Positions 1 through 59,180 of a DNA stretch of 64,000 bases are shown here, one piece after another. The first letter of the stretch is position 1; every line of letters starts with the position of its first letter. The stretch is taken from the NCBI GenBank assembly GCA_963925805.1, contig CAWUSE010000004.1:52467-116466 (forward strand). The letters are read 5' to 3'. The notes beneath the pieces were generated by a model that was not told where the DNA came from, did no database searches, and worked only from the letters and a program-made list of their open reading frames with translations. The position numbers and the translations under genes are program-made. This stretch comes from an uncultured Acidimicrobiales bacterium (lineage in GTDB: Bacteria > Actinomycetota > Acidimicrobiia > Acidimicrobiales > UBA10347).

Positions 1-1521
1 CTCGCTTTTCCGTTGCGCCATGAATGCAAGCAAAGCCTCGTCGATGGACGAGTCCAGTGGTGGTGCTTCGTATTCGACCAGGAGTTGCTTCCATTTGGCG
101 TTGGCGCGCTGCGCTGATGTGAGGCTGCCTTCTTCTTCCCAGCTCTCAAAGCTGTCATTGTTGGCTTGCTCTGAGCGCCAGAACGCGGCTTCGAAGTTGG
201 CGAGCGTATGGGCATTGCCGAGGAAATGCTGGCCGTGTTCGTTGGTGCGGAATGCGTCCATTGCTTGGCCGTTCTCGGACATATCGATGCCGCGTCCATG
301 AACTGTCATAGCGCCAAGCTGGTCGGCGTCGAGAATGAGTTTCTCGTAGCCAATCGACAGACCGCCTTCTTGCCAGCCTGCGGCGTGAAGTACGAAGTTA
401 ACTCCGGCTTGCACCGTTGGGATCAGACTATGTGCAGACTCGTACGCGGCCTGGGCGTCGGGATACTTCGACGCGGTGAACTGGCCACCAGAACGGAATG
501 GGACACCGACGCGCCGGGCGAGTCCTGCCATGACATGGATGGCCTGACCGGCTTCGGGTGTGCCAAATGTTGGGGCGCCCGTTGCCATAGACATCGAGCT
601 GGCGAAGGTGCCGAAGATGACAGGAGCGCCGGGCCGCACAAGCTGGTAATAAGCCATGCCCGATAGTGCTTCGGCAAGTGACTGCGCAGCAAGACCGGCA
701 ACGGTCACCGGCGACATCGCCCCCGCCAGAATGAATGGCGAAAGGATCGAAGCCTGGTTCGCCTTGGCGTAGGCGGTCGCAGCGCCAAGCATTGTGCCGT
801 CCCAGCGCAGCGGTGACGAGGCATTGATCAGCGAGGTCATGACTGTGCGGTCTTGCAAGTCCCCGCCGAACGCGATGCGGCTCAGCTCGATGGAGTCCTG
901 GGCCCGTTCGGCTGCGGTAACTGACCCCATGTATGGCTTATCGCTGTATTTGATGTGCGAGTAGACCATATCGAGATGGCGCTTGTTGACAGGGGTGTCG
1001 ACTGGCTCACAGACGGTGCCGCCCGAATGGTGCAGATGCGGAAGCTGGTACACGAGCTTGACAATGTTCTGGAAGTCTTCGAGCGTGGCATATCTACGAC
1101 CGTTGTCGAGGTCCATAGCGAACGGTGAGCCGTAGTTGGGCGCGAACACCGTTGCGTTACCGCCGATCTGCACACTGCGTGCGGAGTTCCGAGCGTGCTG
1201 TGTGAACACCTTGGGTGCATTGTCCTGCACAAGCTGGCGACACATTCCTTTGGGGAAGTGGACCATGTCGCCCCGGACGTCGGCCCCGGCCTCTTTCCAG
1301 AGCTCAAGCGCCGACGGGAAGTCCTGGAAGGCAACACCAACTTCTTCCAGGATGATGTCGGCGTTCGCTTCGATTGTGGCGTACGCCTCATCGTCAATCA
1401 GGTCGACCGGCGCGAGTCGGCGTTCAAGCCACGCTGCGGTTTCGGTCTTAGTCGCGCGCGCGGCTTGGCGGCCTGAGCGGCCACCTCCGCGGCGGCCCTT
1501 ACGTGCGGGTGCATCAGACAT
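1..1521 (-). CDS. MttB-superfamily (non-pyrrolysine) methylamine/quaternary-amine:corrinoid methyltransferase; 3' end cut by window edge
   Basis: Absent from the ORF track because there is no stop in the window. My own translation of the minus strand from ATG at 1521 (GGAG 7 nt upstream) stays open for 507 codons to base 1: MSDAPARKGRRGGGRSGRQAAR...GGNATVFAPNYGSPFAMDLDNGRRYATLEDFQNIVKLVYQLPHLHHSGGTVCEPVDTPVNKRHLDMVYSHIKYSDKPYMG... This reads as the COG5598/MttB TIM-barrel family. No in-frame TAG. Confidence 0.85.
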   Translation of the reverse strand, partial: MSDAPARKGRRGGGRSGRQAARATKTETAAWLERRLAPVDLIDDEAYATIEANADIILEEVGVAFQDFPSALELWKEAGADVRGDMVHFPKGMCRQLVQDNAPKVFTQHARNSARSVQIGGNATVFAPNYGSPFAMDLDNGRRYATLEDFQNIVKLVYQLPHLHHSGGTVCEPVDTPVNKRHLDMVYSHIKYSDKPYMGSVTAAERAQDSIELSRIAFGGDLQDRTVMTSLINASSPLRWDGTMLGAATAYAKANQASILSPFILAGAMSPVTVAGLAAQSLAEALSGMAYYQLVRPGAPVIFGTFASSMSMATGAPTFGTPEAGQAIHVMAGLARRVGVPFRSGGQFTASKYPDAQAAYESAHSLIPTVQAGVNFVLHAAGWQEGGLSIGYEKLILDADQLGAMTVHGRGIDMSENGQAMDAFRTNEHGQHFLGNAHTLANFEAAFWRSEQANNDSFESWEEEGSLTSAQRANAKWKQLLVEYEAPPLDSSIDEALLAFMAQRKSE

Positions 1522-1548
1522 ATTGGATCTCCTAGGTGCTGGTTGGTA

Positions 1549-3534
1549 TCAGCGACGGCGTGAGCGGCGTCGACGCCCGCCCTCGTGTGCGGCCTTTGGT
1601 GCGGTGGAACGGGGGAAGCCGAGTGCGGTCACGAAGTGCTCTTGGAAACGGGGTTCGGTTGCCGTCTCAATTTTGATCACGTCCTGAACCACGGCTTCCA
1701 CTTGGGTGCGTTGCTCTGCGCTCAATAAGAGCCGGACGGCGCCACTGCCCGCAGAATTTCCCACGGCGTGCACATTGGCGACGTCGATCTCAGGGATCAG
1801 CCCGACGACCATTGCATGGGTGGGGTCGATGTGGGCCCCGAAGGCGCCAGCCAGCCGAATTTCATCGACAGCCGAGAGTCCGGCGTGTTCCATCAGCAGG
1901 TCGATTCCCGCTTTTAGAGCAGCTTTGGCTAGTTGTATTGCTCGGACATCGGCCTGGGTTACGAAGATGTCTGCGACGAGCAGGAAGTTGTAGGTGCGGC
2001 CGTCTTCGACGATGCGGTCAGTGTCGGTGGCGAGCTCGCCCCTGATCACACCAGAGTGGTCGATGATGCCCGCGCTGACCATCTCCGAGATCGCCTCGAT
2101 GATTCCGGATCCACAGATACCGGTGATTCCTGAAGCGTCGATTTCCGCGCTGAAACCGATCTCATTTGACCAGAGATCCGAGCCGATGACCTTGAAAATG
2201 ACGTCATAGGTATCACGATCAATAGCGACTCGCTCGATGGCCCCTGCCGTTGCTCGCTGACCGGAACTGATCTGAGCGCCTTCAAATGCCGGGCCGGTTG
2301 GGCTGGAGCACGCGAACAGTTGCTGGCTGTTGCCGAGCACGATCTCGGCATTGGTCCCAACATCTACTAAGAGCTGGATGGCGTCTGAGCGGTGCGGCCC
2401 TTCGTTGAGGATCGCGGCGGCAGTATCTGCACCCACATGGCCGGCAATACATGGGGCCACGTACAGCATCGCGTTCGGCAGGTCGAGTTCGATATGGGCT
2501 GCAGTGGCGGCGAACGCGCCCTCGATCGCGAGTGGGAACGGCGACTGGCCGAGTGGTGTTGGGTCGAGCCCGAGCACCAGATGGTGCATGATCGGGTTGC
2601 CGACGAGGGTGACATCGACGATACGTGAGCGTTCAATACCGGCAGTTTCGCATAGCTCGGTGACGATCTGGTTTAGCGCAGCCCGCACTTCCTTAGTGAG
2701 CTCTGCCTCACCACCTGGATTCATCATTACGTAGCTCACGCGACTCATCAGGTCTTCGCCAAACCTGATCTGGGGGTTCATCTGCCCTGCGGTCGATAGA
2801 ACTTCGCCGTTCGCCAGGTCGATGAGATGGCCAGCGATCGTGGTTGAGCCAACGTCGACGGCTACGCCCATCAAACGATCGATATAACCGGGCCAGAAAG
2901 CAGCCACCGAAGTGCCACCGCTGCGACGTTCGAGCGCGACTGTGATGTTGGACCGGAAGTTATCGAGTGCGACGGTTCGACGAGGTCCGTTCAGCGTCAC
3001 GCCCCACTGAGCGTCCAACGCTTGGGCGATTCCACCAGCTTCGGCCACATCCGTCAGGTAGTGCAGCGAGTAGATCGGGTCGATAACGAGTTCACCGACA
3101 TCGACTGTTTTGCGGATGACCTGCTTGTGTATCTGGCTCTCGGGGGGAATATCGATGACGATATTGCCGCAGATCTTGGCCGAGCAGCCAAGCCGTCTAC
3201 CTTCGACGATGGCCCGCTTGCCTGCGTAGCTCTCTTCGAGAAGGCCCCACGGCGATAGTGCTCTATCGTCGACGGTGATGGCCCATTTTGCGAATTCACC
3301 GGTGCTCGGCTTGATCTGGCAGCGCCCACAGATTCCGCGTCCACCACAGACCGTGTCGAGGTCAGCGCCGAGTTGCACCGCAGCATCGAGCACCGTCGTA
3401 CCGTCTGCGACCGCCCCGCTGAGGCCTGAGGGCGTGAAGACAACAGTATGAGAACCTGAGCTATCGGAGGCTGGTGCTGGTGCGACGGCGCGAGCGTTGG
3501 CTGGTGCTGCTGCGACGGCGCGAAGTTCGGTCAT
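1549..3534 (-). CDS. Corrinoid reductive activase (RACo/RamA-like): 2Fe-2S ferredoxin domain fused to an ASKHA-type ATPase (DUF4445)
   Basis: 661 aa. Has the N-terminal CGGRGICGRCQ cluster motif, then actin/sugar-kinase-like ATPase segments (VAVDVGSTTIAGHL, LLVDVGTNAEIV, ICGSGII). Ends 27 nt before the MttB start and begins 10 nt after the MT2 stop. Confidence 0.8.
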   Translation of the reverse strand: MTELRAVAAAPANARAVAPAPASDSSGSHTVVFTPSGLSGAVADGTTVLDAAVQLGADLDTVCGGRGICGRCQIKPSTGEFAKWAITVDDRALSPWGLLEESYAGKRAIVEGRRLGCSAKICGNIVIDIPPESQIHKQVIRKTVDVGELVIDPIYSLHYLTDVAEAGGIAQALDAQWGVTLNGPRRTVALDNFRSNITVALERRSGGTSVAAFWPGYIDRLMGVAVDVGSTTIAGHLIDLANGEVLSTAGQMNPQIRFGEDLMSRVSYVMMNPGGEAELTKEVRAALNQIVTELCETAGIERSRIVDVTLVGNPIMHHLVLGLDPTPLGQSPFPLAIEGAFAATAAHIELDLPNAMLYVAPCIAGHVGADTAAAILNEGPHRSDAIQLLVDVGTNAEIVLGNSQQLFACSSPTGPAFEGAQISSGQRATAGAIERVAIDRDTYDVIFKVIGSDLWSNEIGFSAEIDASGITGICGSGIIEAISEMVSAGIIDHSGVIRGELATDTDRIVEDGRTYNFLLVADIFVTQADVRAIQLAKAALKAGIDLLMEHAGLSAVDEIRLAGAFGAHIDPTHAMVVGLIPEIDVANVHAVGNSAGSGAVRLLLSAEQRTQVEAVVQDVIKIETATEPRFQEHFVTALGFPRSTAPKAAHEGGRRRRSRRR

Positions 3535-3544
3535 GACAGGCTAC

Positions 3545-4450
3545 TCAGCCCCGTCGGCGGCGACCGCCAGCGCGTCGGCGGGCTGCGCCTTCGCCACCGC
3601 CTGCGGTGGGGTCACGATTCGCAGCGATCCATGCCGCGCAGTTTTGATCGTTGCCGGTCAGGACATCGGCGGCCATGATGGCGGTCGTGACTTCGCTGTG
3701 AAGCGGATTCATGATTGCACTCGTCATGCCTGCGCCCATGGCCATTGAGAGGAAGGCGCCGGTGATGTTGTGTTTGTTGGGCAGCCCAAAACTCACGTTC
3801 GAGGCCCCGCAGATCGTGTTGACGTGCAATTCTTCGCGCAGGCGCCGAACCAGGCGAAACACCTGTTGGCCAGCAGTGCCCATCGCCCCGATCGGCATGA
3901 CTAATGGATCCACAATCACGTCGCTATGGTGGATGCCATGGTCAGCAGCTCGCTCAACGATCTTTTTGGCTACGGCAAACCGGACATCAGGGTCCTCGCT
4001 AATGCCAGTCTCATCATTGCTGATGGCCACCACTGCAGCGCCCGACTTTTTTACTAACGGGAGCACTCGTTCTAGGACGTCATCTTCGCCGGTTACCGAG
4101 TTGATGAGTGGTTTACCCTGATAGACCTCAATACCGGCTTCGAGCGCCTCGATGATCGATGAGTCGATCGCCAGCGGGACATCGGTTATTGACTGCACCA
4201 GTTTGATGGCTTGGGCCAGCATGGCCGGTTCATCGGCTAACGGGATGCCTGCATTCACATCGAGCATGTGGGCGCCGGCGGCGACCTGCGCCAATGCATC
4301 GGCTTCGACCCGGCTGAAGTCGCCGTCCTTCATCTCTTGCGCCAATAGCTTGCGCCCTGTCGGGTTGATGCGCTCACCGATCATCACAAACGGGCGATCG
4401 AATCCGATTACCACATCCTTGGTTGCCGAGCTGATAACGGTTTCGGTCAT
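3545..4450 (-). CDS. Methyltetrahydrofolate:corrinoid methyltransferase (pterin-binding, MeTr/AcsE/MtgA-like MT2)
   Basis: Pterin-binding barrel signature: FVMIGERINPTGRKLLAQEM, HMLDVNAG, PLAIDSS, PLINSVTGE, ICGASNVSFGLP. I prefer the internal ATG at 4450 (GAGGA 5 nt upstream) over the ORF-track start at 4582. The extra 44 aa look non-protein-like and would overlap the upstream gene. Confidence 0.8.
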   Translation of the reverse strand: MTETVISSATKDVVIGFDRPFVMIGERINPTGRKLLAQEMKDGDFSRVEADALAQVAAGAHMLDVNAGIPLADEPAMLAQAIKLVQSITDVPLAIDSSIIEALEAGIEVYQGKPLINSVTGEDDVLERVLPLVKKSGAAVVAISNDETGISEDPDVRFAVAKKIVERAADHGIHHSDVIVDPLVMPIGAMGTAGQQVFRLVRRLREELHVNTICGASNVSFGLPNKHNITGAFLSMAMGAGMTSAIMNPLHSEVTTAIMAADVLTGNDQNCAAWIAANRDPTAGGGEGAARRRAGGRRRRG

Positions 4451-4541
4451 GTGTTCCTCGATGCGCTGCTCGCAGCGTCGATGCGCTGCGGGTCCTTTGC
4501 GGGTTCTTCTGGTTTCGTTGTTTGGGGGAGCCGATGCGTGA

Positions 4542-4880
4542 TCATGGGGTGAGGCCGCCGTTGTCGATGAGCTTGCGAACACGCTCGCTTGTGTAGAGGC
4601 CGTGCAGTCGCGCTGCTTCGGATTGGGCGATCGCCTCAGGATCGCCAGCGCACGGCTCGCTTACCCGGCGCCACTGCAGGACATAGTCGTCAGCGTTTGT
4701 TAGGCCGGCCACACCTGCAGCGCTGTCGATGGCGAGTTGAAACCGCTTTTCGAGCAGCCACGAGCTTTTTTTGCCGTTGGTTGTAGCGGTCACTTGCGCA
4801 GGAATATCGCGCCAGTAGATAGTGACCATTTCATTGACCTTGGTTCGACGGCGGCGCCGAGGCGCATCGACCGAGTCCAT
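4542..4880 (-). CDS. Small conserved protein of unknown function (the family annotated 'virulence factor' that accompanies MttB/corrinoid operons)
   Basis: Core MVTIYWRDIPAQVTA...LEKRFQLAIDSAAG...DDYVLQWRR matches my memory of the YWRDIPAQV small-protein family. The start is taken at the ATG overlapping the upstream stop (TGATG at 4878-4882); an alternative ATG lies at 4829. Confidence 0.55.
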   Translation of the reverse strand: MDSVDAPRRRRRTKVNEMVTIYWRDIPAQVTATTNGKKSSWLLEKRFQLAIDSAAGVAGLTNADDYVLQWRRVSEPCAGDPEAIAQSEAARLHGLYTSERVRKLIDNGGLTP

Positions 4881-5590
4881 CAGGCGGCAGCGCGTCGGGC
4901 TGAGACCATAGTTGTGGCCATCTCGGCGGCGACCGCAGCATCGCGGCAATACCCGTCGGCGCCGATGGCATCACCGAACTCCTGGTTTAGTGGCGCACCA
5001 CCAACCAAGATGATGTAGTCGTCGCGCAGGCCTTTCTCGGTCATTGTGTCGATGACGACCTTCATGTACGGCATCGTCGTAGTGAGCAGAGCGGACATTC
5101 CCAAGATGTCTGGCTGATGTTCCTCGAGCGCGGCTAGGTATTCGTCGACATCGGTGTTGATCCCCAGGTCGATGACTTCGAAGCCAGCGCCCTCCATCAT
5201 CATCGCAACCAGGTTCTTACCAATGTCGTGGATATCGCCTTTGACGGTGCCGATTACGACTTTGCCGACAGGCTTGGCGCCTGTTTCGGCGAGTAGCGGG
5301 CGCAGGATGAACATGCCGGCCTTCATGGCGTTCGCAGCTAAGAGGACCTCAGGGACGAACAGGATTCCGTCGCGAAAATCGATCCCGACGATGCGCATTC
5401 CTTCGACAAGAGCGTCACTGAGTACCTTGTCGGCGCTCCATCCTCGTTTAAGCAGGATGTTTGTGCCCTCGGTTATCTCGTCGGCGAGACCGTCGTAGAG
5501 ATCATCGTGCATCTGGGCGGTCAAATCGTCGTCGTCGAGTTCGGCCAGGATGATCTCGTCATCTTCGTCGGGTGCTTCATTGTCAGCCAC
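4880..5590 (-). CDS. Cobalamin-binding corrinoid carrier protein (MtgC/MtmC-like)
   Basis: 236 aa. B12-binding helical cap followed by a Rossmann domain with the DxHxxG motif (VKGDIHDIGKN), SALLTTT and GGAPLNQEF. Has an unusually acidic roughly 30-aa N-terminal extension (MADNEAPDEDDEIILAELDDDDL...). Confidence 0.85.
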   Translation of the reverse strand: MADNEAPDEDDEIILAELDDDDLTAQMHDDLYDGLADEITEGTNILLKRGWSADKVLSDALVEGMRIVGIDFRDGILFVPEVLLAANAMKAGMFILRPLLAETGAKPVGKVVIGTVKGDIHDIGKNLVAMMMEGAGFEVIDLGINTDVDEYLAALEEHQPDILGMSALLTTTMPYMKVVIDTMTEKGLRDDYIILVGGAPLNQEFGDAIGADGYCRDAAVAAEMATTMVSARRAAA

Positions 5591-5855: not shown

Positions 5856-6056
5856 CTATGGGGCGGCGGGGATGCCGGCGTCTAGTTGGGTTTGGGCTGA
5901 TGTGAAAACACCTTTGATGCTTTGGCCAAATGCTGCCAGAACAATGATTGCTGCGAGAGCAACGAGGGCGAGGAGCAGGCCGTATTCAGCCATTGCTGCG
6001 CCGCGTTCTCTGCGATCTGCAGCCACGTTTTGGAGATGAACTATTATTTTGATCAT
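5856..6056 (-). CDS. flp: Flp/Fap family type IVb pilin precursor
   Basis: MIKIIVHLQNVAADRRERG|AAMAEYGLLLALVALAAIIVLAAF has the Flp prepilin motif (G/xxxxEYG followed by a hydrophobic helix). Start taken at ATG 6056; the ORF-track extension to 6125 is AT-rich leader. Confidence 0.7.
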   Translation of the reverse strand: MIKIIVHLQNVAADRRERGAAMAEYGLLLALVALAAIIVLAAFGQSIKGVFTSAQTQLDAGIPAAP

Positions 6057-6248
6057 TAGTTCCGTCTTTCTAAAAAATCGATCAGGCCGGGTGCCAGTGG
6101 ATACGTGACCCATCGGCCCCACCATATAAGTGCTTAGCTTTTAAATTAATTCCATACTCAGTTTAACAGATAATGGGCCGTATGGCCCGGGTGGGTCGTT
6201 TCGAGTCCGTATGGCCAAGGATTTTGCAGCAACGTGTAATCCGTCGAC

Positions 6249-6866
6249 GTGCAGGCCGTTGTTGCTACTGGGTATCGAATCTCGATATCGCTCGAAAGGA
6301 AATACTCATATGGAAATGTTTGCGTCTTCTCCGCATACTCAGTGTGGGCAGCGTTGGCCAAAGCTTACGCTGGCTACCGCAGTCGTCCTGGCACTCTTTT
6401 TCTCCACCGTCGGGACCGCCGATGCTCAAACTGAACGAGCCCGTTCGCCGCAAGTTGAACCAGTGCGAGCTGCACTACAGGCCGAGACGTTGCGCCATGT
6501 CAGTTACTAGAAGGCAACTAGAAACACCCCTCAGCCACTGCCGACATTTCCGACGATGCGGGCACGGTGGTACTCAATTATGCGGCTGGTCCAAGCGGTG
6601 GCTCGCTTCGACAAATGTTCAGTGATTTATGTGAGTGGACATCTCGTTCCTATTCGCCTTATCCGGGTCTCCGAACAGCTTCTGGAGCCCTTGGCGACTT
6701 CAACGACAAGTTCATGGTGAACACCTGAGTGGTAGGTGGTGGCTACGTCGGAACGACACCTGGCCCTGTTCGTGCCACCCATCACAACTTTTCCTGCTGG
6801 CGACCCGATGACATTTTTCAGGTGCTCGTCTGGCCCGCAACGTGTAATTCGCCAATAATCTGGTAG
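6249..6866 (+). pseudogene. egtB: egtB (hercynine sulfoxide synthase) remnant; C-terminal FGE-sulfatase-like part only, with multiple in-frame stops
   Basis: One reading frame gives ...SLRQMFSDLCEWTSRSYSPYPGLRTASGALGDFNDKFMVNT*VVGGGYVGTTPGPVRATHHNFSCWRPDDIFQVL... This parallels the EgtB C-terminus as I recall it (GDVWEWTSSPY.PYPGF.P..GAVGEYNGKFM..QMVLRGGSCATP.GH.RA.YRNFF.PD.RWQF.GLR). In-frame stops at 6432, 6456, 6519 and 6726, with no frameshift. The N-terminal DinB half is absent. Confidence 0.6.
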
Positions 6867-6954
6867 CCAGCCCGCTCACGTCAGCTTCGCCCCTTATTCC
6901 TGCTCGATGCCTCGTGGCCCTACTGGCCTTACCCCCCAAAAAAGAGAAAACACA

Positions 6955-7926
6955 ATGACTGCCGCTCGTATTGATGTACACCTTGAACCCAGCTGGTGGC
7001 GAACGACGCTGGAACACGACGTGCGGACGGGGCTGGTCGCAGAGCAGCGCAGCATCCCTGCGAAATGGTTCTACGACGAAATCGGCTGCCAGCTATTTGA
7101 TGACATAACCAAGCTCGACGAGTACTACCCCTTTCGGGCTGAGCGCGACATCCTGGCGACGCGAGCGAACGAGATCGTCGCCGTAGCTGAAGCCGACACG
7201 TTGGTCGAACTTGGCTCTGGGACCAGCGAAAAGAGTCGCGTGTTACTCGATGCGATGGCGGATGCCCACGTGCTGAAGCGATACGTGCCATTCGACGTTA
7301 GCGAAGAGACATTGCGTTCGGCCGCGGATCAAATAGCGACCGACTATCCCGGCACCGCGGTGCACGGCATCGTGGGTGACTTCGATCGACACATCCCTCT
7401 CGTACCTATTGGAGGAATGGGCATGGTGGCTTTTTTGGGTAGCACGATTGGCAATTTCGAGCCCAGCGCTCGTAAGCGCTTCATCGCCGACGTTGTCGCG
7501 GCGCTTGAACCCGATGGCACCTTCTTGCTGGGCACTGACCTGGTCAAGGATCCGGACCGCTTGTGGGCGGCATACAACGATGCGAAGGGCGTGACGGCTC
7601 AGTTCAATCTGAACATGCTCACCATGATCAACCGTGAGTTGAACGCAGACTTTGACCTCGATCAATTTGAGCATGCTGCCGACTGGGATGCCGACAACGA
7701 ATGGATTGATATCCGCGTTCGAAGCAAGGTGGCCCAAACGGTGCAGGTGCGAGATCTGGACCTGGTCGTCGAGTTCGTGGCAGGAGAAGAGATGAAAACA
7801 GAGATCAGTGCCAAGTTTCGGCTTGGGGGCATAGCCGCTGAACTTGAAGCTGCAGGTTTGACTGTCGTCGAGCAATGGACAGACAGCTACGGTGACTTTG
7901 CAGTGACGCTCGCCCGCAAGCGCTGA
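6955..7926 (+). CDS. egtD: L-histidine N-alpha-methyltransferase EgtD (hercynine synthase)
   Basis: Co-linear with mycobacterial EgtD as I remember it: PKWFYD..G..LFD.IT.L.EYYP, DTLVELGSGTSEKSR.LLDAM, FLGSTIGN, LLGTDLVKD, GVTAQFN.N.L..INREL.ADFDLD.FEH. Start at ATG 6955 (MTAARIDVHL). Confidence 0.9.
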   Translation: MTAARIDVHLEPSWWRTTLEHDVRTGLVAEQRSIPAKWFYDEIGCQLFDDITKLDEYYPFRAERDILATRANEIVAVAEADTLVELGSGTSEKSRVLLDAMADAHVLKRYVPFDVSEETLRSAADQIATDYPGTAVHGIVGDFDRHIPLVPIGGMGMVAFLGSTIGNFEPSARKRFIADVVAALEPDGTFLLGTDLVKDPDRLWAAYNDAKGVTAQFNLNMLTMINRELNADFDLDQFEHAADWDADNEWIDIRVRSKVAQTVQVRDLDLVVEFVAGEEMKTEISAKFRLGGIAAELEAAGLTVVEQWTDSYGDFAVTLARKR

Positions 7927-51450: not shown

Positions 51451-52734
51451 CTAATCCCAAGCGAGGTGCAGGGTGGTCGGGCCTCGGAAGGTGACGTTTG
51501 GAGAGTAGGACTCACTCTGGTCTTCGACCAGCCGTAACGAAGGGATCCGGTCAGCGAGTATCTCGGTCATGACCTGGGTTTCGAACTTTGCGAACCGGGC
51601 GCCAAGGCAGTAGTGGACACCCTTACCGAACGAAATATTCTGAGCAGCATTAGGGCGGTGAATGTCGAACTCGTTGGGGTTCTCGAAGATGTCAGCCTGT
51701 CGATTCGCCGACGCAAAATTCATGAAGATGGCCGTGCCGGCTGGGACGTCATACCCGCCAACGGTGGTGTCAACTGTGGTTAGGCGTCGCCACGAGATCT
51801 GGCTTGAGTTGAAGCGCATGACCTCTTCGACCGCGTTCGGGATCAGCGTCGGATCGGCACATATTTCGGTCCAGACATCGCGCCGGGGGAGGAGGCACTG
51901 CAACGTGTTGCAGATAGCTGACGTCACCGCTTCGTGGCCAGCGAACGACAACCCGTAGACCACCGACTCGACTTCACGGTAGGTGATGTCATCGGGATTC
52001 TCTTCGTGGGCAGTGATTAGCTCACTGGTGAAGTCATCGCCCCGATTGGCCTGTTTCGATGCGGTGAACTCTCGGCAATATCGCCAGTAGGCAAGCATCT
52101 GTTCGGCGATCTCGGTCTGCTGGGCGCCCGTCGGGCGTCCCCAAGAGAATGCCTTGCGGTCCCCACACCATTGCTTCAGCAGTTCGTCATCAGCTTCGGG
52201 GAAGCCGATGAAGCGGAACACGGTTTCGCCCGGCAGCGGGAATGCGAATGCGTCTACGAATTCGGCCGAAGAACCAGCCGCCAACATCGCATCGATGAGT
52301 TGGTTGCCACGGCGGCGCATAAACGGCTCGAGCGTCTTGATGCGCTTGTTCGAGAAACCTTGGCGCGTGTATTTGCGGATACGTCCATGGTCCGGCTCGG
52401 GTCGATTTGACATGACAGCAACGGGGTTGAAGTCCTCGGCACTGAGCACCTGTTGTGCTTCGGGCGCCAGCGGAAATACGGGGTCCTGCACGTTCACCGA
52501 GGCGAAAGTTTCGTGATCGTTGAAGATGCGTTCGATTTCTTCCATTTCGGTGACAACGAGATAGTTGAGTTCTTCGGCGTAGAACACCGGGTGAGCGTCG
52601 CGCAAGTGACTCGCGATTGCATATGGCTCAGCCAGATAGTCCTCGTTCAACGGACTCCAACTGGCGTGCATTGGACAGCCCACAGGCGGTGGGGGAGTTT
52701 CGAGTCGTTCCTGATGGTATTTATCGCCAGCCAT
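51451..52734 (-). CDS. Cytochrome P450 monooxygenase
   Basis: Heme-thiolate loop FGKGVHYCLGARFA, EXXR (EEVMR), and I-helix AGHEAVTS. Starts 9 nt after the hpaI stop (AGGAAAG RBS). Confidence 0.9.
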   Translation of the reverse strand: MAGDKYHQERLETPPPPVGCPMHASWSPLNEDYLAEPYAIASHLRDAHPVFYAEELNYLVVTEMEEIERIFNDHETFASVNVQDPVFPLAPEAQQVLSAEDFNPVAVMSNRPEPDHGRIRKYTRQGFSNKRIKTLEPFMRRRGNQLIDAMLAAGSSAEFVDAFAFPLPGETVFRFIGFPEADDELLKQWCGDRKAFSWGRPTGAQQTEIAEQMLAYWRYCREFTASKQANRGDDFTSELITAHEENPDDITYREVESVVYGLSFAGHEAVTSAICNTLQCLLPRRDVWTEICADPTLIPNAVEEVMRFNSSQISWRRLTTVDTTVGGYDVPAGTAIFMNFASANRQADIFENPNEFDIHRPNAAQNISFGKGVHYCLGARFAKFETQVMTEILADRIPSLRLVEDQSESYSPNVTFRGPTTLHLAWD

Positions 52735-52743
52735 AGGTCTTTC

Positions 52744-53511
52744 CTAATTGTTCTTGAACGAATCGGCAAGTGCTTTGGTGTGTTTCGCCAGCATGCTGGT
52801 GTCGACCCCGACTGCGACGAAGTTGGCGCCAGCATCGCGGTATTCGCGAGCAAGGGTGGGGTTCACGCTGAGCACGCCTGCCGGCTTGCCAGCTGCTCGT
52901 ACTGCTGTGATTGAGGCAACGACCGCTTCCCGGACGTCGGGGTGTGTTGCATCGCCGATGTGGCCAAGAGCAGCGCCGAGGTCTGATGGCCCGATGAACA
53001 CGCCGTCCACGCCATCGACGCGTGCTATGTCCATGAGGTTCTTCACGCCCTTGATCGTTTCGACCTGGACGAGCACGCACATCTCATCGTTGGCCTGGCG
53101 GTAGTAATCGTCGATGCGTCCCCAGCGTGCGGCCCGAGCGCTGGCTACGCCTCGGATTCCTTGCGGGGGATATAGCACCGCTCGAACCATCTCTTCGGCC
53201 TGCTCGGCGGTGTCGATCATTGGTACCAGGATTGTTTGTGCCCCTAGGTCGAGGTACTGCTTAATGATCACAGCATCGGCTCGTGGCGGTCGAATCACGG
53301 CGCTCACGGGGTAGCCATTGACCGCCTGCAGTTGGGCCAACAAGGTACGTAAATCGTTAGGGGAGTGTTCGGCGTCGATCATCAGCCAGTCGAAACCAGC
53401 GCCGGCGCTGATCTCGGCTGCGACCGGGTCGGCGAGGCTGATCCACATGCCGTATTGAACGCCGGGCTCCACTAGTCGTCGCTTAAATTGATTCACTGGT
53501 ATGTCGGACAT
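52744..53511 (-). CDS. hpaI: HpcH/HpaI-family class II aldolase (2,4-dihydroxyhept-2-ene-1,7-dioate aldolase)
   Basis: G.W.....P...E.....GFDWLMIDAEHSPND and VR......IKQ.LD.GA.T.LVPM motifs, plus the hpa gene context. Confidence 0.8.
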   Translation of the reverse strand: MSDIPVNQFKRRLVEPGVQYGMWISLADPVAAEISAGAGFDWLMIDAEHSPNDLRTLLAQLQAVNGYPVSAVIRPPRADAVIIKQYLDLGAQTILVPMIDTAEQAEEMVRAVLYPPQGIRGVASARAARWGRIDDYYRQANDEMCVLVQVETIKGVKNLMDIARVDGVDGVFIGPSDLGAALGHIGDATHPDVREAVVASITAVRAAGKPAGVLSVNPTLAREYRDAGANFVAVGVDTSMLAKHTKALADSFKNN

Positions 53512-54314
53512 CAGGTGAACTCCAGACCGAAGGCACCCATTGGGCCGTAGTCAAAGTGGAAGTCGTCGCCCGGCCGAATATCGATCGGACGGGTAAACGA
53601 GCCGGCCAGTATGACCTGGCCTTTCTCGAGCGTGAGTCCTTGCTCGTGGTATCGGCGGGCGAGCCAGGCGATACCCCTGGCAGGATGTCCGAGCACGCCA
53701 GCAGCAACTCCTGTCTCTTCGATGACGCCATTGCGGCTGCCCAGTGCGCTGACCCAGCGCAGGTCGATATCGCGAGGAGCGACTTGGTCGAGGCCCATGA
53801 TGATGCCTGCGTTAGCCGCGTTATCAGCGATGGTGTCGACAACGGTGCGCGTGCGCCCACTGTCGGGATCGCGTCGATAGGAACGAGCTGCGATTAGCTC
53901 GATGGCGGGCACGACGTACTGGGTAGCGTCCAGGATGTCGTCAACGGATAGGTCGGCGCCACTGAGGTCATTTGCGAGAACGAAGGCTAATTCGACCTCG
54001 AGCTTCGGGTCGCAGAAGCCGGCCGCGGTCAGTTGGGTGTCGGGGCCAAACACCATCTTGTCGGTCAGGAAGCCAGAGTCTGGGGTGGTGATATTCATGG
54101 AGGCTTGCATCGCTCGGCTCGTAAGTCCGATCTTGTGGCCAATGAGTGCTTCACCCCGGGCGAGCTTAATTTCTTGCCAAGCAGCTTGGATGACGTACGC
54201 GTCATCGATAGTTAGGTCGGGATATTCGCCGGTCGTTTGGCGCATTTGCGTGGCGTCGATCTCGGCCTGGTCGAGCAGCGCGGCTTCGGCAGCGGCGGCT
54301 TCAGGACTGATCAT
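53511..54314 (-). CDS. hpaH: 2-oxo-hept-4-ene-1,7-dioate hydratase (2-keto-4-pentenoate hydratase family)
   Basis: Y.IQ......K...G....GHKIGLTS.AMQ, E.E.AFVL, and C-terminal G..ILAGSFT. 1-nt overlap with hpaI. Confidence 0.8.
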   Translation of the reverse strand: MISPEAAAAEAALLDQAEIDATQMRQTTGEYPDLTIDDAYVIQAAWQEIKLARGEALIGHKIGLTSRAMQASMNITTPDSGFLTDKMVFGPDTQLTAAGFCDPKLEVELAFVLANDLSGADLSVDDILDATQYVVPAIELIAARSYRRDPDSGRTRTVVDTIADNAANAGIIMGLDQVAPRDIDLRWVSALGSRNGVIEETGVAAGVLGHPARGIAWLARRYHEQGLTLEKGQVILAGSFTRPIDIRPGDDFHFDYGPMGAFGLEFT

Positions 54315-54829
54315 TGGTTGTCTCCTAATGGCCTGAGGCCTGGTGCCTGCACAATACGGTTGGTCTTGTCACGCAGGTCGGCGAGTTGACGCAGTAATCG
54401 CTGTAGCGCCTTGTCGCCGAATGCTTCTTCGATTTGGTTGTAAATCGCTTCGCTCTCGGGAGCCACCAAGGCCACCAAGTCATGTCCAGTGATCGTGAGC
54501 GATATCTCGGCTCGGCGTTGGTCGGTTGCGACGAGGGATCGGCGCACGAGTTGGCGTCCTTCAAGGTCTCGCAGGATCCGAGACAAGCTCGGCGCAAGTA
54601 GGAAGGTCGCGTCGACGATGGCCCCGACCTCGATTGGTTCGGGAGTAGCGGAGAGGGCTCGCAACACTCGCCACTGTTGTTCGGTCAGATCGTGCTCGGC
54701 GAGCAGCGGACGGAAGAGCTGCATTGCAGCCTCTCGAGTTTGCAGCAGCACCATGGGTAACGACGCCGAGAAGTCCCGCATGGCGATTAGCCCGTCGCCG
54801 TCGATCCTGGCCTCGGCCGAAGATGTCAT
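54311..54829 (-). CDS. hpaR: MarR-family regulator (HpaR-like)
   Basis: Winged-HTH: LTEQQWRVLRALS......VGAIVDATFLLAPSLSRILRDLEGRQLVRR. 4-nt overlaps with both neighbours. Confidence 0.75.
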   Translation of the reverse strand: MTSSAEARIDGDGLIAMRDFSASLPMVLLQTREAAMQLFRPLLAEHDLTEQQWRVLRALSATPEPIEVGAIVDATFLLAPSLSRILRDLEGRQLVRRSLVATDQRRAEISLTITGHDLVALVAPESEAIYNQIEEAFGDKALQRLLRQLADLRDKTNRIVQAPGLRPLGDNQ

Positions 54830-55731
54830 TGTGGTTCGGGGATCTGGAAGTCGGTTCCCTCGGGGAACGCGTCAGCGACCGTGTTGCGTAACACGCCAAG
54901 TTCAGGAACAGCGACCTCAACCACATCCCCAGGAACAAGCCATTTTGGCGGATCGAACCGGGCGCCAGCGCCAGTAGGGGTGCCTGAGAAGATGATGTCG
55001 CCGGGCCGCAGTCGCGTGAAGGTCGATAGATAGTGAATTTGGTAGTCGATCGAGTACTTCATGGTCGCTGGGGTGTCATCTTGGCGTAATTCGCCATTGA
55101 CGTGAGTCGTCAGGTGCAGGTCTTCGAAGTCGCCGATCTCATCGATCGAGACCAGGTGCGGACCGATCGACCCGGTCGATTCCCAGTTCTTTCCCTGGGT
55201 CACGTTGAACTTGGCGTGACGGACCCAATCACGAATCGTGCCCTCATTGCCCAGTGACAGTCCTGCGATATGGCTGCGGGCTTCGCTGACCGGGATGCGC
55301 CGACCGGGCTTACCGATTATGACGACGATCTCACCCTCGTAGTCGAGTTGCGGGCTTTCAGGCGGGCGAATGACATCGCGTTCATGGCCGGTGAACGAAT
55401 CAGGAAAGCGCACAAAGACCGAAGGCCAGGCGGCGTCGCTCTTGTCCTCGTACTCGGCGCTGCGGCCGCCGTAGTTCACGCCGATGCAAAAGATCTTCTG
55501 CGGCCAGGGGAGCAGTCGTTCGTAGGTGATGTCGGTCACGGCATGGTCGGCTGGCTCATCGGCGAACTCGCGTGCTTCTTCGATGCGCATATGGCCTACG
55601 AGTTGACCCAGGTCGCTGATGCCCTTGATGCGCTGCGACCCAGCGCTGCCAAGTTCGATCACGCCTTGGCCGTCGGCGGTGAGCATGCCGAAACCGGGTG
55701 CATTGCCGGCCGTATACGAAACGAACCTCAT
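54826..55731 (-). CDS. Fumarylacetoacetate-hydrolase-family enzyme (HpaG-like OPET decarboxylase/HHDD isomerase), single FAH domain
   Basis: FAH motifs KIFCIGVNY, LDYEGEIVVIIG, NEGTIRDW, GDIIFSGTPTG. Confidence 0.8.
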   Translation of the reverse strand: MRFVSYTAGNAPGFGMLTADGQGVIELGSAGSQRIKGISDLGQLVGHMRIEEAREFADEPADHAVTDITYERLLPWPQKIFCIGVNYGGRSAEYEDKSDAAWPSVFVRFPDSFTGHERDVIRPPESPQLDYEGEIVVIIGKPGRRIPVSEARSHIAGLSLGNEGTIRDWVRHAKFNVTQGKNWESTGSIGPHLVSIDEIGDFEDLHLTTHVNGELRQDDTPATMKYSIDYQIHYLSTFTRLRPGDIIFSGTPTGAGARFDPPKWLVPGDVVEVAVPELGVLRNTVADAFPEGTDFQIPEPQ

Positions 55732-55844
55732 GCGGCCATTTTGGTAATCGCGGCTTCTGTTCGTTCAGGCCGTTCTGTGGATGCGACTTGCTGTTGCATG
55801 ATGGACACCACTTCTAAAGATTCCGTTGCGTTGAGATAGTACAC

Positions 55845-55855
55845 ATGTTAAACAT
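55845..55855. promoter_or_regulatory. Palindrome in the AT-rich hpaG / hpaF divergent control region; candidate MarR/HpaR operator
   Basis: ATGTT-A-AACAT lies within the lowest-GC part (about 55810-55860) of the 172-bp intergenic region. Confidence 0.3.
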
Positions 55856-55903
55856 CTAGGGCAAGGGGAAGTTCCCACCTGCCAAACACGATTGCGAGAA
55901 GCC

Positions 55904-56308
55904 GTGCCGCACATCACGATTGAGTACTCAGCCAATGTTGCTGAGCACCACGACATTGATGCGCTGGTGGAGACTGTCCACACAGCGGCGCTCAGTCACG
56001 GGTTGCCACCCGTCGATGCATTGCGCACCAGGGCAGCGGTGCGCGTTCACTATCTGATTGCTGACGGATCTGAACCGGAAACGTTTGCGTTTATCGCTAT
56101 TGCTGTTCGCATCGGTCCCGGTCGCGACGCGACCTCTAAATCGACCTTCATCGAGATGGTGCTCGACGCCGCTGAGGCGTTCATCGGCGGCGTTTGCTGT
56201 CCACTGTCGATCGCATGGTCGATTGAACTCAATGAGATCGACCCCGAGTTTCGGATCAACCGCAATTACGTCCGTCGTCATCTGAATTCGCTGAAAGAAG
56301 ACACGTAA
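55904..56308 (+). CDS. hpaF: 5-carboxymethyl-2-hydroxymuconate isomerase (tautomerase superfamily)
   Basis: A GTG start gives M-PHITIEYSANV..., i.e. the catalytic Pro-1 typical of CHMI/tautomerases. About 134 aa. Confidence 0.8.
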   Translation: MPHITIEYSANVAEHHDIDALVETVHTAALSHGLPPVDALRTRAAVRVHYLIADGSEPETFAFIAIAVRIGPGRDATSKSTFIEMVLDAAEAFIGGVCCPLSIAWSIELNEIDPEFRINRNYVRRHLNSLKEDT

Positions 56309-57834
56309 TGGCTAATGCCACAACATACGAAGACAATCTGGCTGCAGCCACTGGTTATCTCGCCCGTTTCGCCAATGCGCCGCTACCCCACCTCATCGGG
56401 GGAGAGGCGATGCTGTCAGTGTCGGGTGAGACGTTCGCGAACCAGTCGCCAATCGACGGCCGTCATCTCGGTGATGTTTCGTCGGGCGACGCAGCCGACA
56501 TCGATGCGGCCGCCAAAGCCGCGGTGCGGGGATTTGGCGTGTGGAGCGCCATGTCCGGCGCCGAACGCAAGGTTATCTTGCACAAGGTCGCTGACCTGAT
56601 CGAAGAGAAGGCACACCAGATCGCGGTCACCGAATGCATCGATACTGGTCAGACGATGCGCTTCATGGGTCACGCCGCATTACGAGGCGCTGCGAACTTC
56701 CGCTTCTTTGCGGACCAGGCTCCAGCCGCCAATGATGGCCAGTCACTGCCAACTGCTGACCATGTGAACTACACGACTCGAGATCCAATCGGTCCGGTCG
56801 GGGTCATCACGCCATGGAACACCCCGTTTATGCTCAGCACGTGGAAGATTGCGCCGGCACTAGCTGCCGGATGCAGCGTTGTGCACAAGCCAGCGGAGTG
56901 GAGCCCGTTCACGGCGCACTTGCTGGCCGAGATAGCGCTCGAAGCTGGCCTGCCGCCAGGTGTTCTGAATGTCGTGCACGGTATGGGCGAGACCGCAGGC
57001 AAGAGCCTGACCGAACACCCCGACATTAAGGCCATCGCTTTCGTCGGTGAGTCATCGACCGGTTCGATGATTCAAGCACAAGGTGCGTCAACTCTGAAGC
57101 GAGTCCACTTCGAACTGGGTGGGAAGAACCCAGTCATCGTGTTCGACGATGCCGACATTGAACGTGCACTTGATGCGGTGATCTTCATGATCTACAGCCT
57201 GAACGGCGAGCGCTGTACGAGTTCGAGCCGGGTGTTGATCCAGTCGTCGATCTACGACGAGTTCACCGAGCGCCTGGCCGAGAAGATGAAGGGTGTGCCG
57301 GTTGGTCATCCACTTGATCCGTCATCGGTTATTGGCCCTCTCATCCATCCTCGCCATCATGAAAAGGTCTGCAGTTATCAGGACATCGCCAAGGAAGAAG
57401 GCGCAACAGTCATCTATGGAAACACTTGGGCTGATGCTCCCGAAGGCGGTAACTGGGTCACGCCGGTTTTGTATACCGGCGCCACCAACGAGATGCGCAT
57501 TGCACAAGAAGAGATTTTTGGCCCAGCACTCACGGCGATCCCGTTCGAGGACGAGGCCGATGCAATCAAGATTGCAAACGACGTCGAGTACGGGCTCGCC
57601 GGCTATTTGTGGACTCGTGACGTTGGTCGGGCTCATCGGGTTGCGCATGCGCTTGAGGCTGGCATGATCTGGGTTAATTCCCAGAACGTGCGTCACCTTC
57701 CAACGCCGTTTGGTGGCACCAAGTCCAGCGGGATCGGGCGTGACGGTGGCGACTGGAGCTTCGAGTTCTATATGGAGACTAAGAACATCGCCATTGCGTT
57801 CGACACTCACGCCGTGCCGAAACTGGGCGGCTGA
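56308..57834 (+). CDS. hpaE: 5-carboxymethyl-2-hydroxymuconate semialdehyde dehydrogenase (ALDH superfamily)
   Basis: ITPWNTPF, ELGGKNP, catalytic Cys NGERCTSSSR, EEIFGP. Its ATG overlaps the hpaF stop. Confidence 0.8.
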   Translation: MANATTYEDNLAAATGYLARFANAPLPHLIGGEAMLSVSGETFANQSPIDGRHLGDVSSGDAADIDAAAKAAVRGFGVWSAMSGAERKVILHKVADLIEEKAHQIAVTECIDTGQTMRFMGHAALRGAANFRFFADQAPAANDGQSLPTADHVNYTTRDPIGPVGVITPWNTPFMLSTWKIAPALAAGCSVVHKPAEWSPFTAHLLAEIALEAGLPPGVLNVVHGMGETAGKSLTEHPDIKAIAFVGESSTGSMIQAQGASTLKRVHFELGGKNPVIVFDDADIERALDAVIFMIYSLNGERCTSSSRVLIQSSIYDEFTERLAEKMKGVPVGHPLDPSSVIGPLIHPRHHEKVCSYQDIAKEEGATVIYGNTWADAPEGGNWVTPVLYTGATNEMRIAQEEIFGPALTAIPFEDEADAIKIANDVEYGLAGYLWTRDVGRAHRVAHALEAGMIWVNSQNVRHLPTPFGGTKSSGIGRDGGDWSFEFYMETKNIAIAFDTHAVPKLGG

Positions 57835-57842
57835 GGTTCACG

Positions 57843-58184
57843 ATGAGTTTGTATTACGTGCAGAAGTTTCTCTATGAGTTAAACCGCGACGAGGGCAAGC
57901 AGCAGGCCTATATGGCTGATCGCGATGCTGCGATTGCAAGCTTTGAGTTAACCAATGAAGAACGGGCCGCGCTCACGGCCCCGGACATCGGCATGCTGTT
58001 TCACCTTGGTGTGAACGGGCAAATCTTGATGCACTTTGCGGCGCTCCACCAGATCGAATGGGCCGACTATCTCCAGCGCATGCGCGACGGGATCCAAGCG
58101 CACGGTCCGGTCCGAGAAGGTGTGTACGCCATGACCGGCTACGAAGGAACCGACGTACATGCCAAGAGCCTGGGCCAGGAGTGA
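57843..58184 (+). CDS. LigA-like small subunit of a class III extradiol dioxygenase
   Basis: VQKFLYELNRDEGKQQAYMADRDAAIASFELTNEERAALTAPDIGMLFHLGVNGQIL follows the LigA-domain pattern (N.F...L.....R..F.......Y.LT..E..A...D...L...G.N). Confidence 0.6.
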   Translation: MSLYYVQKFLYELNRDEGKQQAYMADRDAAIASFELTNEERAALTAPDIGMLFHLGVNGQILMHFAALHQIEWADYLQRMRDGIQAHGPVREGVYAMTGYEGTDVHAKSLGQE

Positions 58185-58239
58185 CCTTGAAAGTGAATGC
58201 CTTGGTCCAATCAACTAGCGCCGAAACAGGAGAGAGCTG

Positions 58240-59088
58240 ATGCCACTTGTCTATGCAGGCGTGTGCAGTCACGCCCCCGGAATCACCGGGCGAGCCAACC
58301 AGGCCGACCCGACAGTCCGCGACGCGTTCTACGCATCGTTTGACCAGATGCGGCGCGATATCGAAGCCACCAAACCCGACGCGTTAGTCGTCATTGCTGC
58401 CGAACACTTCGCGAACTTCTTCATGGACAACATGCCCACTTTTGCTCTGGGCATGGCCGACTTCTACGACGGCCCCATCGAGGATGCTGGCTGGCTTGGC
58501 ATCGACAAATTTCGTGCCCCTGGCAATCGAGATTTGTCCGAACGGCTGATCAAGGAAGTCATGCAGACCGTCGATGTCAGCTACGCCGAAGAATGGAAGT
58601 TCGACCATGGCATTGCTGTGCCTCTGCACTTCTTGACGCCGAACTTCGACCTGCCGATCATCCCGGCCAACATCAATTGCCAAGGGCCACCACTTAGCCC
58701 ACTGTCGCGAGCGTGGGCGTTTGGCGAGGCGTTGCGCCGGGCGGCCGACGCGTTGCCCGAACGGATTGCACTAGTGGGTACCGGAGGGATCTCTCACTGG
58801 CCCGCCACACCGGACAGCGGCAAGATCAATGAACCCTGGGATCGTGACTTCCTGGATCGTTGGTGCCGTAACGACCGCGATGCATTGCTCGACTACGACG
58901 ATGGCACGGTCTACACCGATGCTGGCCAAGGCGGGTTCGAGATCCGAACGTTCATCACGGTGAGCGGAGCGGCGGCGGGCGCCACGGGCACGGTGCATTT
59001 CTATGAGCCCATTCCGATCTTTGCTGTGGGGTGCACTGTGGCTAGTTACGATCTGGGAGCAACCGTGGGGGTTGCCCGGTTGATCTGA
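58240..59088 (+). CDS. LigB-family class III extradiol ring-cleavage dioxygenase, probable homoprotocatechuate 2,3-dioxygenase catalytic subunit
   Basis: VCSHAPG, VVIAAEHFANFF, FDHGIAVPLHFL, GTGGISHWP are the LigB/HpaD-type motifs. Context with hpaE/F/G/H/I supports the call. Confidence 0.8.
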   Translation: MPLVYAGVCSHAPGITGRANQADPTVRDAFYASFDQMRRDIEATKPDALVVIAAEHFANFFMDNMPTFALGMADFYDGPIEDAGWLGIDKFRAPGNRDLSERLIKEVMQTVDVSYAEEWKFDHGIAVPLHFLTPNFDLPIIPANINCQGPPLSPLSRAWAFGEALRRAADALPERIALVGTGGISHWPATPDSGKINEPWDRDFLDRWCRNDRDALLDYDDGTVYTDAGQGGFEIRTFITVSGAAAGATGTVHFYEPIPIFAVGCTVASYDLGATVGVARLI

Positions 59089-59180
59089 TCCCCCAGGTCA
59101 AAGCGGGGTAGTCGTCGGCTGATTGTTCAAGATCTCGGCCGTTGCGGATGCAGTCGTTATTGAACATCTCCTAGGATGCC

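Follow-up and report, generated by a model that had tools for sequence, protein, structure and literature searches.

Two lines of genetic work in aerobes describe the systems closest to the locus reported here. Phaeobacter inhibens, an aerobe, makes methionine with a split B12-dependent synthase that combines a corrinoid protein with a pterin-binding protein and a homocysteine methyltransferase. Two further components, a RamA-like ferredoxin/ASKHA protein and one of the DUF1638 family, are encoded by genes that this split MetH cannot do without (Price et al. 2018, PMC5764234). In Ruegeria pomeroyi, mtgC and mtgD mutants do not grow on glycine betaine and are methionine auxotrophs, the PF06253 proteins MtgB1 and MtgB2, RamA and DUF1638 are all induced, and the aerobic MtgC was described as a distinct lineage (Mausz et al. 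2025, PMC12478193). Deletion of mtgB1 and of mtgC in P. inhibens also leads to glycine-betaine phenotypes (bioRxiv 10.64898/2025.12.19.695462). Here we compare these systems to a locus at one end of a 64,000-nt stretch of DNA (contig CAWUSE010000004.1 of assembly GCA_963925805.1, hereafter the window) from an uncultured Acidimicrobiales bacterium. On the minus strand of positions 1-5590, five tightly packed co-directional genes encode, in order, a corrinoid protein, a small PF13769 protein, a pterin-binding methyltransferase (MT2), a reductive activase and a methyltransferase of the MttB superfamily (MT1) (Table 1). We consider this operon to be, more likely than not, an aerobic-type cobalamin-dependent quaternary-amine:tetrahydrofolate (THF) methyltransferase that is homologous to MtgBCD with its RamA-like protein, and whose substrate would most likely be glycine betaine.

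The relationship is clearest when the window is set against the Sinorhizobium meliloti cluster named MtgBCDE by Mausz et al., to which the corrinoid protein is 82% identical, MT2 63%, MT1 60%, the activase 49% and the PF13769 protein 43%. Because identity of the four core proteins to S. meliloti runs at 49-82% and because the corrinoid protein falls under both NCBIfam cutoffs for anaerobic MtgC (205 vs. 370 and 167 vs. 310 bits), the operon, as judged from its sequence, belongs with the aerobic MtgBCD systems and their RamA-like protein, here in an actinobacterium. Pfam and NCBIfam profiles also bear out the gene annotations of an initial annotation made from the DNA letters alone, along with its reading of the operon as corrinoid-dependent methyl transfer feeding methyl-THF. 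That annotation had further placed the characterized non-pyrrolysine systems in anaerobes only and had read the operon as implying a Co(I) cycle in an aerobe. The first statement is out of date and the second is no novelty, since the same gene set has genetic support in R. pomeroyi and P. inhibens and such a cycle in an aerobe is thus already described.

For the same reason it is very improbable that the window carries a previously undescribed corrinoid quaternary-amine system of the anaerobe type, anomalous in its aerobic host. Such a reading could appeal to the fact that all in vitro work on the characterized enzymes (Desulfitobacterium hafniense MtgB and those of Eubacterium limosum) concerns anaerobes. 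However, the aerobic MtgBCD system has been published together with its genetics, aerobes with a split MetH were already on record in 2018, the window corrinoid protein belongs to the aerobic rather than the anaerobic type of MtgC, and carriers in the Actinomycetota have already been noted at read level, with 5% of ocean mtgC reads assigned to that phylum (PMC12478193). Relatives are also numerous: a protein database holds more than 8000 homologs, the top 120 of which are Acidimicrobiia-like. When genomes were scanned, one per species, 566 relatives emerged, of which the best 80 are Acidimicrobiia at 72-93% identity (the 93% match being an Acidimicrobiales metagenome-assembled genome), followed by Steroidobacteraceae, Woeseiaceae and other Gammaproteobacteria at 60-64%.

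The first gene of the operon encodes a protein whose translation carries the motifs DIHDIG (DxHxxG), SALL (SxL) and VGG (GG), and its identity to the cobalamin-binding protein of the S. meliloti cluster extends over 200 amino acids. Its closest solved structures are 1Y80 and MttC (7XCN_M). Between Actinomycetota and Alpha- and Gammaproteobacteria, the corrinoid protein is 75-82% identical (e.g., window positions 4916-5515 vs. L081 10656-11354) and its partners 49-63%, a level of conservation far above that of the partners, as one would expect of a hub protein with several docking enzymes. MT2 scores 362 bits against PRK07535, above the cutoff of 259; its S. meliloti counterpart is MtgD, listed as 'methyltetrahydrofolate cobalamin methyltransferase', and its closest solved structure is the MeTr structure 2YCK.

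The activase matches the RACo middle domain (PF17651, 160 bits) and the ASKHA C-terminal domain (PF14574, 277 bits), reaches 285 bits to the RACo structure 3ZYY, and scores 332 bits against the AcsV model, under the cutoff of 800. Its N-terminus is Cys-rich and ferredoxin-like, and weak matches to 2Fe-2S ferredoxins at residues 16-111 make it probable that this region carries a 2Fe-2S cluster. Against the archaeal RamA model TIGR04270 it scores 122 bits, for a cutoff of 500. The "RACo/RamA-type" label of the initial annotation is therefore kept in its first half but not in its second: this is a RACo-type activase and not RamA in the strict sense. Its S. meliloti counterpart is the ASKHA protein of the cluster.

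MT1 belongs to the non-pyrrolysine branch of the MttB superfamily (PF06253/COG5598). It matches PF06253 (MTTB) at 700 bits over profile positions 1-498 of 500, a full-length match, and its frame stays open from the ATG over 507 codons within the window (513 for the complete gene), with no TAG other than the terminator. The pyrrolysine (Pyl) residue Pyl334 of Methanosarcina barkeri MttB, given as X in 7XCL, aligns with F348 of MT1, encoded by TTC, so the absence of an in-frame TAG noted earlier holds up at the very position that matters. In keeping with this, the Pyl-dependent trimethylamine methyltransferase model TIGR02369 is matched at only 225 bits against a cutoff of 525, with no Pyl codon. 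MT1 reaches 638 bits to a structure from S. meliloti (PDB 4YYC) and aligns end to end with D. hafniense MtgB (9YCE) at 370 bits, matches which imply a TIM-barrel fold with a central substrate cavity.

For D. hafniense MtgB, Picking et al. 2026 (PMC13080624) established the residues that contact glycine betaine by mutagenesis and by the bound structure 9YCE: Y97 and F356 make cation-pi contacts, and the carboxylate is held by R312 and H348. We mapped these residues onto MT1 with a HMMER alignment to 9YCE, the chain numbering of which runs two below that of the paper. Three of the four contacts are kept, with Y97 corresponding to Y130, R312 to R343 and H348 to H379. The residues Y130, R343, H379, W383, G386 and G387 are essentially invariant among 88 locus orthologs (at least 58% identity) and the 120 best database hits, the sole exceptions being a single ambiguous X at H379 and a single Ser in place of G386. 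In contrast, paralogs at 54% identity lose the pocket Tyr, and those at 26% lose all four of the Tyr, Arg, His and Trp residues. The position equivalent to Pyl is Phe in 41 of 42 Acidimicrobiia loci and in 104 of the 120 best hits, whereas it is Leu in Proteobacteria and D. hafniense.

In a neighbor-joining tree, the Acidimicrobiia MT1s are monophyletic and sister to a proteobacterial clade into which the S. meliloti and Paracoccus genes fall. The outgroup next to both is D. hafniense MtgB, and the 26% paralogs lie far outside. The S. meliloti MT1 that is adjacent to MtgC has the window MT1 as its own best match. This S. meliloti copy is located near bmt and a glycine-betaine ABC transporter, and the Paracoccus copy adjoins a carnitine dehydrogenase and a GlxA-family regulator. 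The pattern of pocket conservation fits a small carboxylate-bearing quaternary amine, and the genomic company of the ortholog in S. meliloti and Paracoccus makes glycine betaine the best candidate. We infer from this that the substrate of MT1 is most likely glycine betaine or a close carboxy-betaine. The initial annotation had held that the substrate cannot be read from the sequence; this is right in that no substrate is proven, but the three retained contacts and the match to the S. meliloti gene say more than nothing about it.

Several observations weigh against glycine betaine, or against the operon working as its aerobic relatives do, and we would like to set them out together. The fourth contact, F356, corresponds to G387 in MT1, and the invariant W383 lies four residues upstream; W383 might substitute for F356. 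R. pomeroyi MtgB1 and MtgB2 (Q5LRL7 and Q5LRJ3) and P. inhibens MtgB1 may or may not share the subclade of the window MT1, the proteobacterial side of the tree covering the S. meliloti and Paracoccus genes, and a search seeded with the Paracoccus MT1 ortholog retrieved Paracoccus and Rhizobiales sequences only and no Ruegeria or Phaeobacter MtgB1. Moreover, 60% identity to the S. meliloti MT1 does not fix the substrate, because MtcB and MtyB have different physiological substrates at 53% identity (PMC8604678), and no MT1 assayed in vitro comes from the aerobic clade. As for the genes around the operon, there is no betaine transporter, MetF, dimethylglycine (DMG)/sarcosine enzyme or MtgE in the 64-kb window or in the 8.4 kb past its left edge. 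Nor is there a DUF1638 gene in the cluster, the window or the 8.4-kb extension, a search limited to that stretch, so that a copy may lie elsewhere in the genome; the junction at 4880 is clean.

Some of these points lend weight to the possibility, which we consider somewhat unlikely, that the same machinery serves another MT1 substrate, such as proline betaine, carnitine, gamma-butyrobetaine, an amino-acid betaine like hercynine (the product that EgtD would supply) or a methylamine. The loss of F356, the Phe that most Acidimicrobiia have at the Pyl-equivalent site, the divergence in substrate among MttB-family members at 53% identity and the lack of glycine-betaine transporter or DMG/sarcosine genes nearby would all agree with it, as would the finding that bacteria with MtgCD often have several PF06253 paralogs, presumed to act on other substrates (PMC12478193), and the presence of a gene above the EgtD cutoff 1.3 kb upstream of the operon, in divergent orientation. 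On the other hand, the same Tyr, Arg, His and Trp are found in the S. meliloti, Paracoccus and gammaproteobacterial orthologs, which have glycine-betaine- or carnitine-related neighbors and no EgtD, and EgtD adjoins the operon in only two of 49 related loci, with a variable spacer. Arg and His would also suit a carboxylate, and the compact aromatic pair would suit a small betaine over a bulky one.

If glycine betaine is indeed the substrate, the proposed cycle would run as follows. MT1 would bind the small carboxylate-bearing quaternary amine, with R343 and H379 holding the carboxylate and Y130 and probably W383 holding the trimethylammonium group, and would methylate Co(I) on the corrinoid protein. 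MT2 would then move the methyl group from CH3-Co(III) to THF, and the resulting methyl-THF would be available for one-carbon oxidation or assimilation. Adventitious Co(II) would be brought back to Co(I) by the RACo-type activase, at the expense of ATP and through its ferredoxin-like domain; where the cytoplasm is oxic, this repair should be called on more frequently. The PF13769 protein, whose translation is coupled to that of the corrinoid protein, would act as a conserved accessory. If R. pomeroyi is a guide, the corrinoid protein and MT2 may in addition work in the opposite direction and, together with a homocysteine methyltransferase encoded at another site, yield methionine, though this mode finds no local support, there being no PF02574 gene in the 64 kb of the window or the 8.4 kb beyond it.

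Taken further, the same analogy gives a mainly anabolic reading, in which a split methionine synthase is assembled from the corrinoid protein, MT2, the activase and an MtgE-like homocysteine methyltransferase (PF02574) whose gene lies at another place in the genome, and MT1 provides an alternative supply of methyl donors. The homologous MtgC, MtgD and RamA-like proteins are indispensable for making methionine in P. inhibens and R. pomeroyi, about 70% of marine genomes with MtgBCD lack MetH (PMC12478193), and the conservation of the corrinoid protein across phyla fits several partners. We nevertheless find this improbable, given that only two of the 49 loci have a PF02574 gene nearby, that the DUF1638 gene needed for the P. 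inhibens split MetH is missing from the window cluster, and that MT1 is co-transcribed as the last operon gene in almost every Acidimicrobiia locus, a link between the module and demethylation. What the sequences show is the genes present, their families, their similarity to relatives, the conserved residues and the synteny; the chemistry, the substrate, the flux toward methyl-THF, the dual role and any part played by PF13769 are what we infer, by way of the characterized homologs.

The 49 loci just mentioned are distinct, hold both the corrinoid protein and MT2, and come from Acidimicrobiia, Gammaproteobacteria and Alphaproteobacteria. The activase and MT1 are each present in 48 of them, PF13769 in 47 and DUF1638 in 42. 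The small protein that the initial annotation found, correctly, but assigned to no family is a PF13769 protein and a conserved member of the cluster. It is present in S. meliloti and in an unrelated 5.76-Mb genome (L089), and its place is between the corrinoid protein (or DUF1638) and MT2 (or MetF), as at L081 7105-7407 and L089 8001-8315. Its invariant motifs are WRDIPAQV, RFQxAID and WRR, with no conserved Cys or His. An AlphaFold2 model built from database hits is confident (pLDDT 89.4), and a Foldseek search of this model against the PDB returned nothing below an E-value of 0.1. PF13769 is not mentioned in either of the two key papers (Price 2018, PMC5764234, and Mausz 2025, PMC12478193).

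DUF1638, where present, is located between the corrinoid protein and PF13769 (e.g., L003 6037-6600 and L009 5918-6586). In addition to the window, it is missing from the cluster in L001, L006, L031-33 and L089, while close relatives L003-L005 have it. The operon described earlier as "complete" is accordingly intact in its five genes but lacks one that most related loci carry. A more speculative proposal, which we think fairly unlikely, is that aerobic corrinoid methyltransferase systems have in PF13769 a functional subunit that has gone unrecognized, that glycine betaine is not what the MT1s of the Acidimicrobiia clade act on, or both. As a subunit, PF13769 could be a chaperone or adaptor of the corrinoid protein or an aid to the protection or reactivation of Co(I), in which case DUF1638 could be dispensable in lineages like that of the window. 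As for the second part, the Acidimicrobiia clade, with Phe at the Pyl site and Trp for F356, may act on, e.g., hercynine from the neighboring EgtD.

The operon itself is well supported by six fetched metagenome contigs that match the window at 99.5-99.9% DNA identity, and a public metagenome-assembly collection lists the identical activase in 86 of its blocks. Gene calls on the near-identical contigs give the same spacers as had been noted before, within the range of -1 to 91 nt; in order, they are -1, 91, 10 and 27 nt. The start of PF13769 overlaps the stop of the corrinoid gene by 1 nt, and the gene callers place its product at the same length on those contigs and the start of MT2 at 4450 rather than at the GTG at 4582. 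The window lacks only the final six codons and the stop of MT1. Extension to the left supplied this C-terminus, and because the full 513-aa gene is present on contigs of 99.5-99.9% identity, MT1 is not disrupted beyond the window. The stop codon is a TAG located 19-21 nt past the left window edge (L083 13553-13555), a plain terminator here, though TAG is the Pyl codon in true MttB genes.

Table 1. Genes of the corrinoid methyltransferase operon, in operon order, with positions in the window.
Gene product	Positions	Strand	Family evidence
Corrinoid (B12) carrier protein, MtgC-like (aerobic type), 236 aa	4880..5590	-	PF02607 + PF02310 (B12 cap + B12-binding)
PF13769 ('Virulence_fact') small protein, 112 aa	4542..4880	-	PF13769, E 1e-17
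Pterin-binding MT2 (methyl-corrinoid:THF methyltransferase, MtgD/MeTr-like), 301 aa	3545..4450	-	PF00809; PRK07535
RACo-type ATP-dependent reductive activase of corrinoid proteins, 661 aa	1549..3534	-	PF17651 + PF14574
Non-Pyl MttB-superfamily MT1, first 507 of 513 codons	1..1521	-	PF06253

The GC content of the operon, overall and at third codon positions, is the same as that of the remaining window. This composition and the monophyly of the Acidimicrobiia in the MT1 tree speak against a recent horizontal import, and the operon has the look of a trait that the Acidimicrobiia have long passed on vertically. In no part of the window did an Rfam family attain its gathering score, and a riboswitch or other RNA upstream of the operon was rejected; promoter and terminator scans at the operon gave scores at shuffle level. 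Upstream of the operon, we observed a strain-level indel at 6001-6520, a stretch that includes part of a Flp/Fap pilin gene (5856-6113, minus strand); it is missing from L083 and L088, contigs that are otherwise 99.7-99.9% identical, and present in L084-L087.

No transporter or regulator is located next to the operon on either side; what had been remarked earlier for the upstream side also holds downstream, over the 8.4 kb past the window edge. Across the 49 loci, a major facilitator superfamily (MFS) gene is found in 20, a DmdA/GcvT-like gene in 15, MetF together with a MetF C-terminal-domain gene in 16 (proteobacterial in every inspected case), and MtgE-like and EgtD genes in two each. Most other Acidimicrobiia have, after MT1 and convergent with it, genes for an MFS transporter and a THF-dependent demethylase of DmdA/GcvT-like type (L009 11527-15857 and 14-19 more loci), the latter scoring 297 bits to the dimethylsulfoniopropionate demethylase model, under its cutoff; in L009, a PabB-aminotransferase fusion follows these additionally. 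The two genes are candidates for uptake and for the next demethylation steps, and the pair is absent beside the operon in the window lineage.

Past the left window edge by about 0.5 kb, on the operon strand, lies a gene for an F420-dependent LLM-class oxidoreductase (TIGR03564 family, above cutoff; L083 14080-15003). Together with a deaminase it follows MT1 as a pair kept only in L001, L002 and L004. We considered, speculatively, that it might be a Mer-like stand-in for MetF but did not adopt this, its distance being variable and its similarity to Mer weak (91 bits vs. a cutoff of 276). On the other side of the operon, the EgtD gene (L-histidine N-alpha-methyltransferase, hercynine synthase; 6907-7926, plus strand) scores 341 bits against an equivalog cutoff of 291 and stands alone, with no EgtB, EgtC or EgtE near it. 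The arrangement of a betaine-forming EgtD beside a putative betaine demethylase is limited to the window lineage. As a clue to the substrate, we set EgtD aside as a low-probability lead, since the adjacency is shared only with L001 and the spacer varies. The mycothiol-type families that the window encodes, like its closest genomes, put it in the Acidimicrobiales.

The aerobic actinobacterial setting given in the initial annotation was confirmed by its O2-dependent enzymes, two P450s (51451-52734, minus strand, and 59181-60467, plus strand) and a LigA/LigB dioxygenase (57843-59088, plus strand). A homoprotocatechuate meta-cleavage set accompanies them. The P450s and LigA/LigB are part of an aromatic-catabolism island at 51451-60467 which in addition contains an HpcH-type aldolase, a MarR regulator, an FAA-hydrolase-family protein, CHMI and an aldehyde dehydrogenase. 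One of the island P450s is followed by an S-adenosylmethionine (SAM)-dependent methyltransferase and a SnoaL-like protein.

The window operon offers a compact actinobacterial example of a pathway so far validated genetically only in Alphaproteobacteria. If glycine betaine or a related osmolyte is its substrate, the Acidimicrobiia would be among the likely B12-dependent consumers of such compounds. It also provides two leads, namely that the corrinoid protein and MT2 are in nearly every case accompanied by PF13769, on which the key papers are silent, and that DUF1638, essential in Phaeobacter, is not constant in the cluster. The established picture of how the system works is unchanged.

Compared to individual known proteins, the window activase is similar to RACo of Carboxydothermus hydrogenoformans (3ZYY) in its middle and ASKHA C-terminal domains and its N-terminal ferredoxin-like domain, but its partner would be a methyltransferase corrinoid protein and not the corrinoid iron-sulfur protein. 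Similarly, the folate and B12 cap/B12-binding modules are homologous to those of MetH (90-126 bits to MetH structures), an enzyme which likewise relies on a Co(I)/CH3-Co(III) cycle and reductive reactivation in aerobes. Unlike in MetH, however, they are separate proteins, no homocysteine domain is present, and an ATP-dependent RACo-type activase replaces the SAM-dependent reactivation domain. In E. limosum, one corrinoid protein, MT2 and activase (MtqC/MtqA) serve the non-Pyl MT1s MtpB, MtcB and MtyB on acidic quaternary amines (with MthBCA as a further system), an organization that we liken to the window system by description only; E. limosum is an anaerobic acetogen with 42 paralogs.

The D. 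hafniense MtgB/MtgC/MtgA system (2QNE, 9YCE; PMC13080624) shares with the window the logic of an MT1, a corrinoid protein and an MT2, as well as the residues Y97, R312 and H348. It differs in that the window has Gly at the F356 position with a Trp four residues earlier, and a corrinoid protein under the MtgC equivalog cutoffs; D. hafniense, moreover, is a strict anaerobe that feeds the Wood-Ljungdahl pathway or respiration. The closest likeness is to the aerobic MtgBCD(E) systems of Ruegeria, Phaeobacter and Sinorhizobium, which have a PF06253 MT1, a carrier with B12-binding_2 and B12-binding domains, a pterin-binding MT2 and a RamA-like/RACo ASKHA activase in an aerobic host, with the PF13769 gene also found in the S. 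meliloti cluster. The window departs from these in having no DUF1638, MetF/MetF-C or MtgE in or near the cluster, and in its Actinomycetota host, its Phe rather than Leu at the Pyl-equivalent position, and its arrangement of all five genes in one compact operon.

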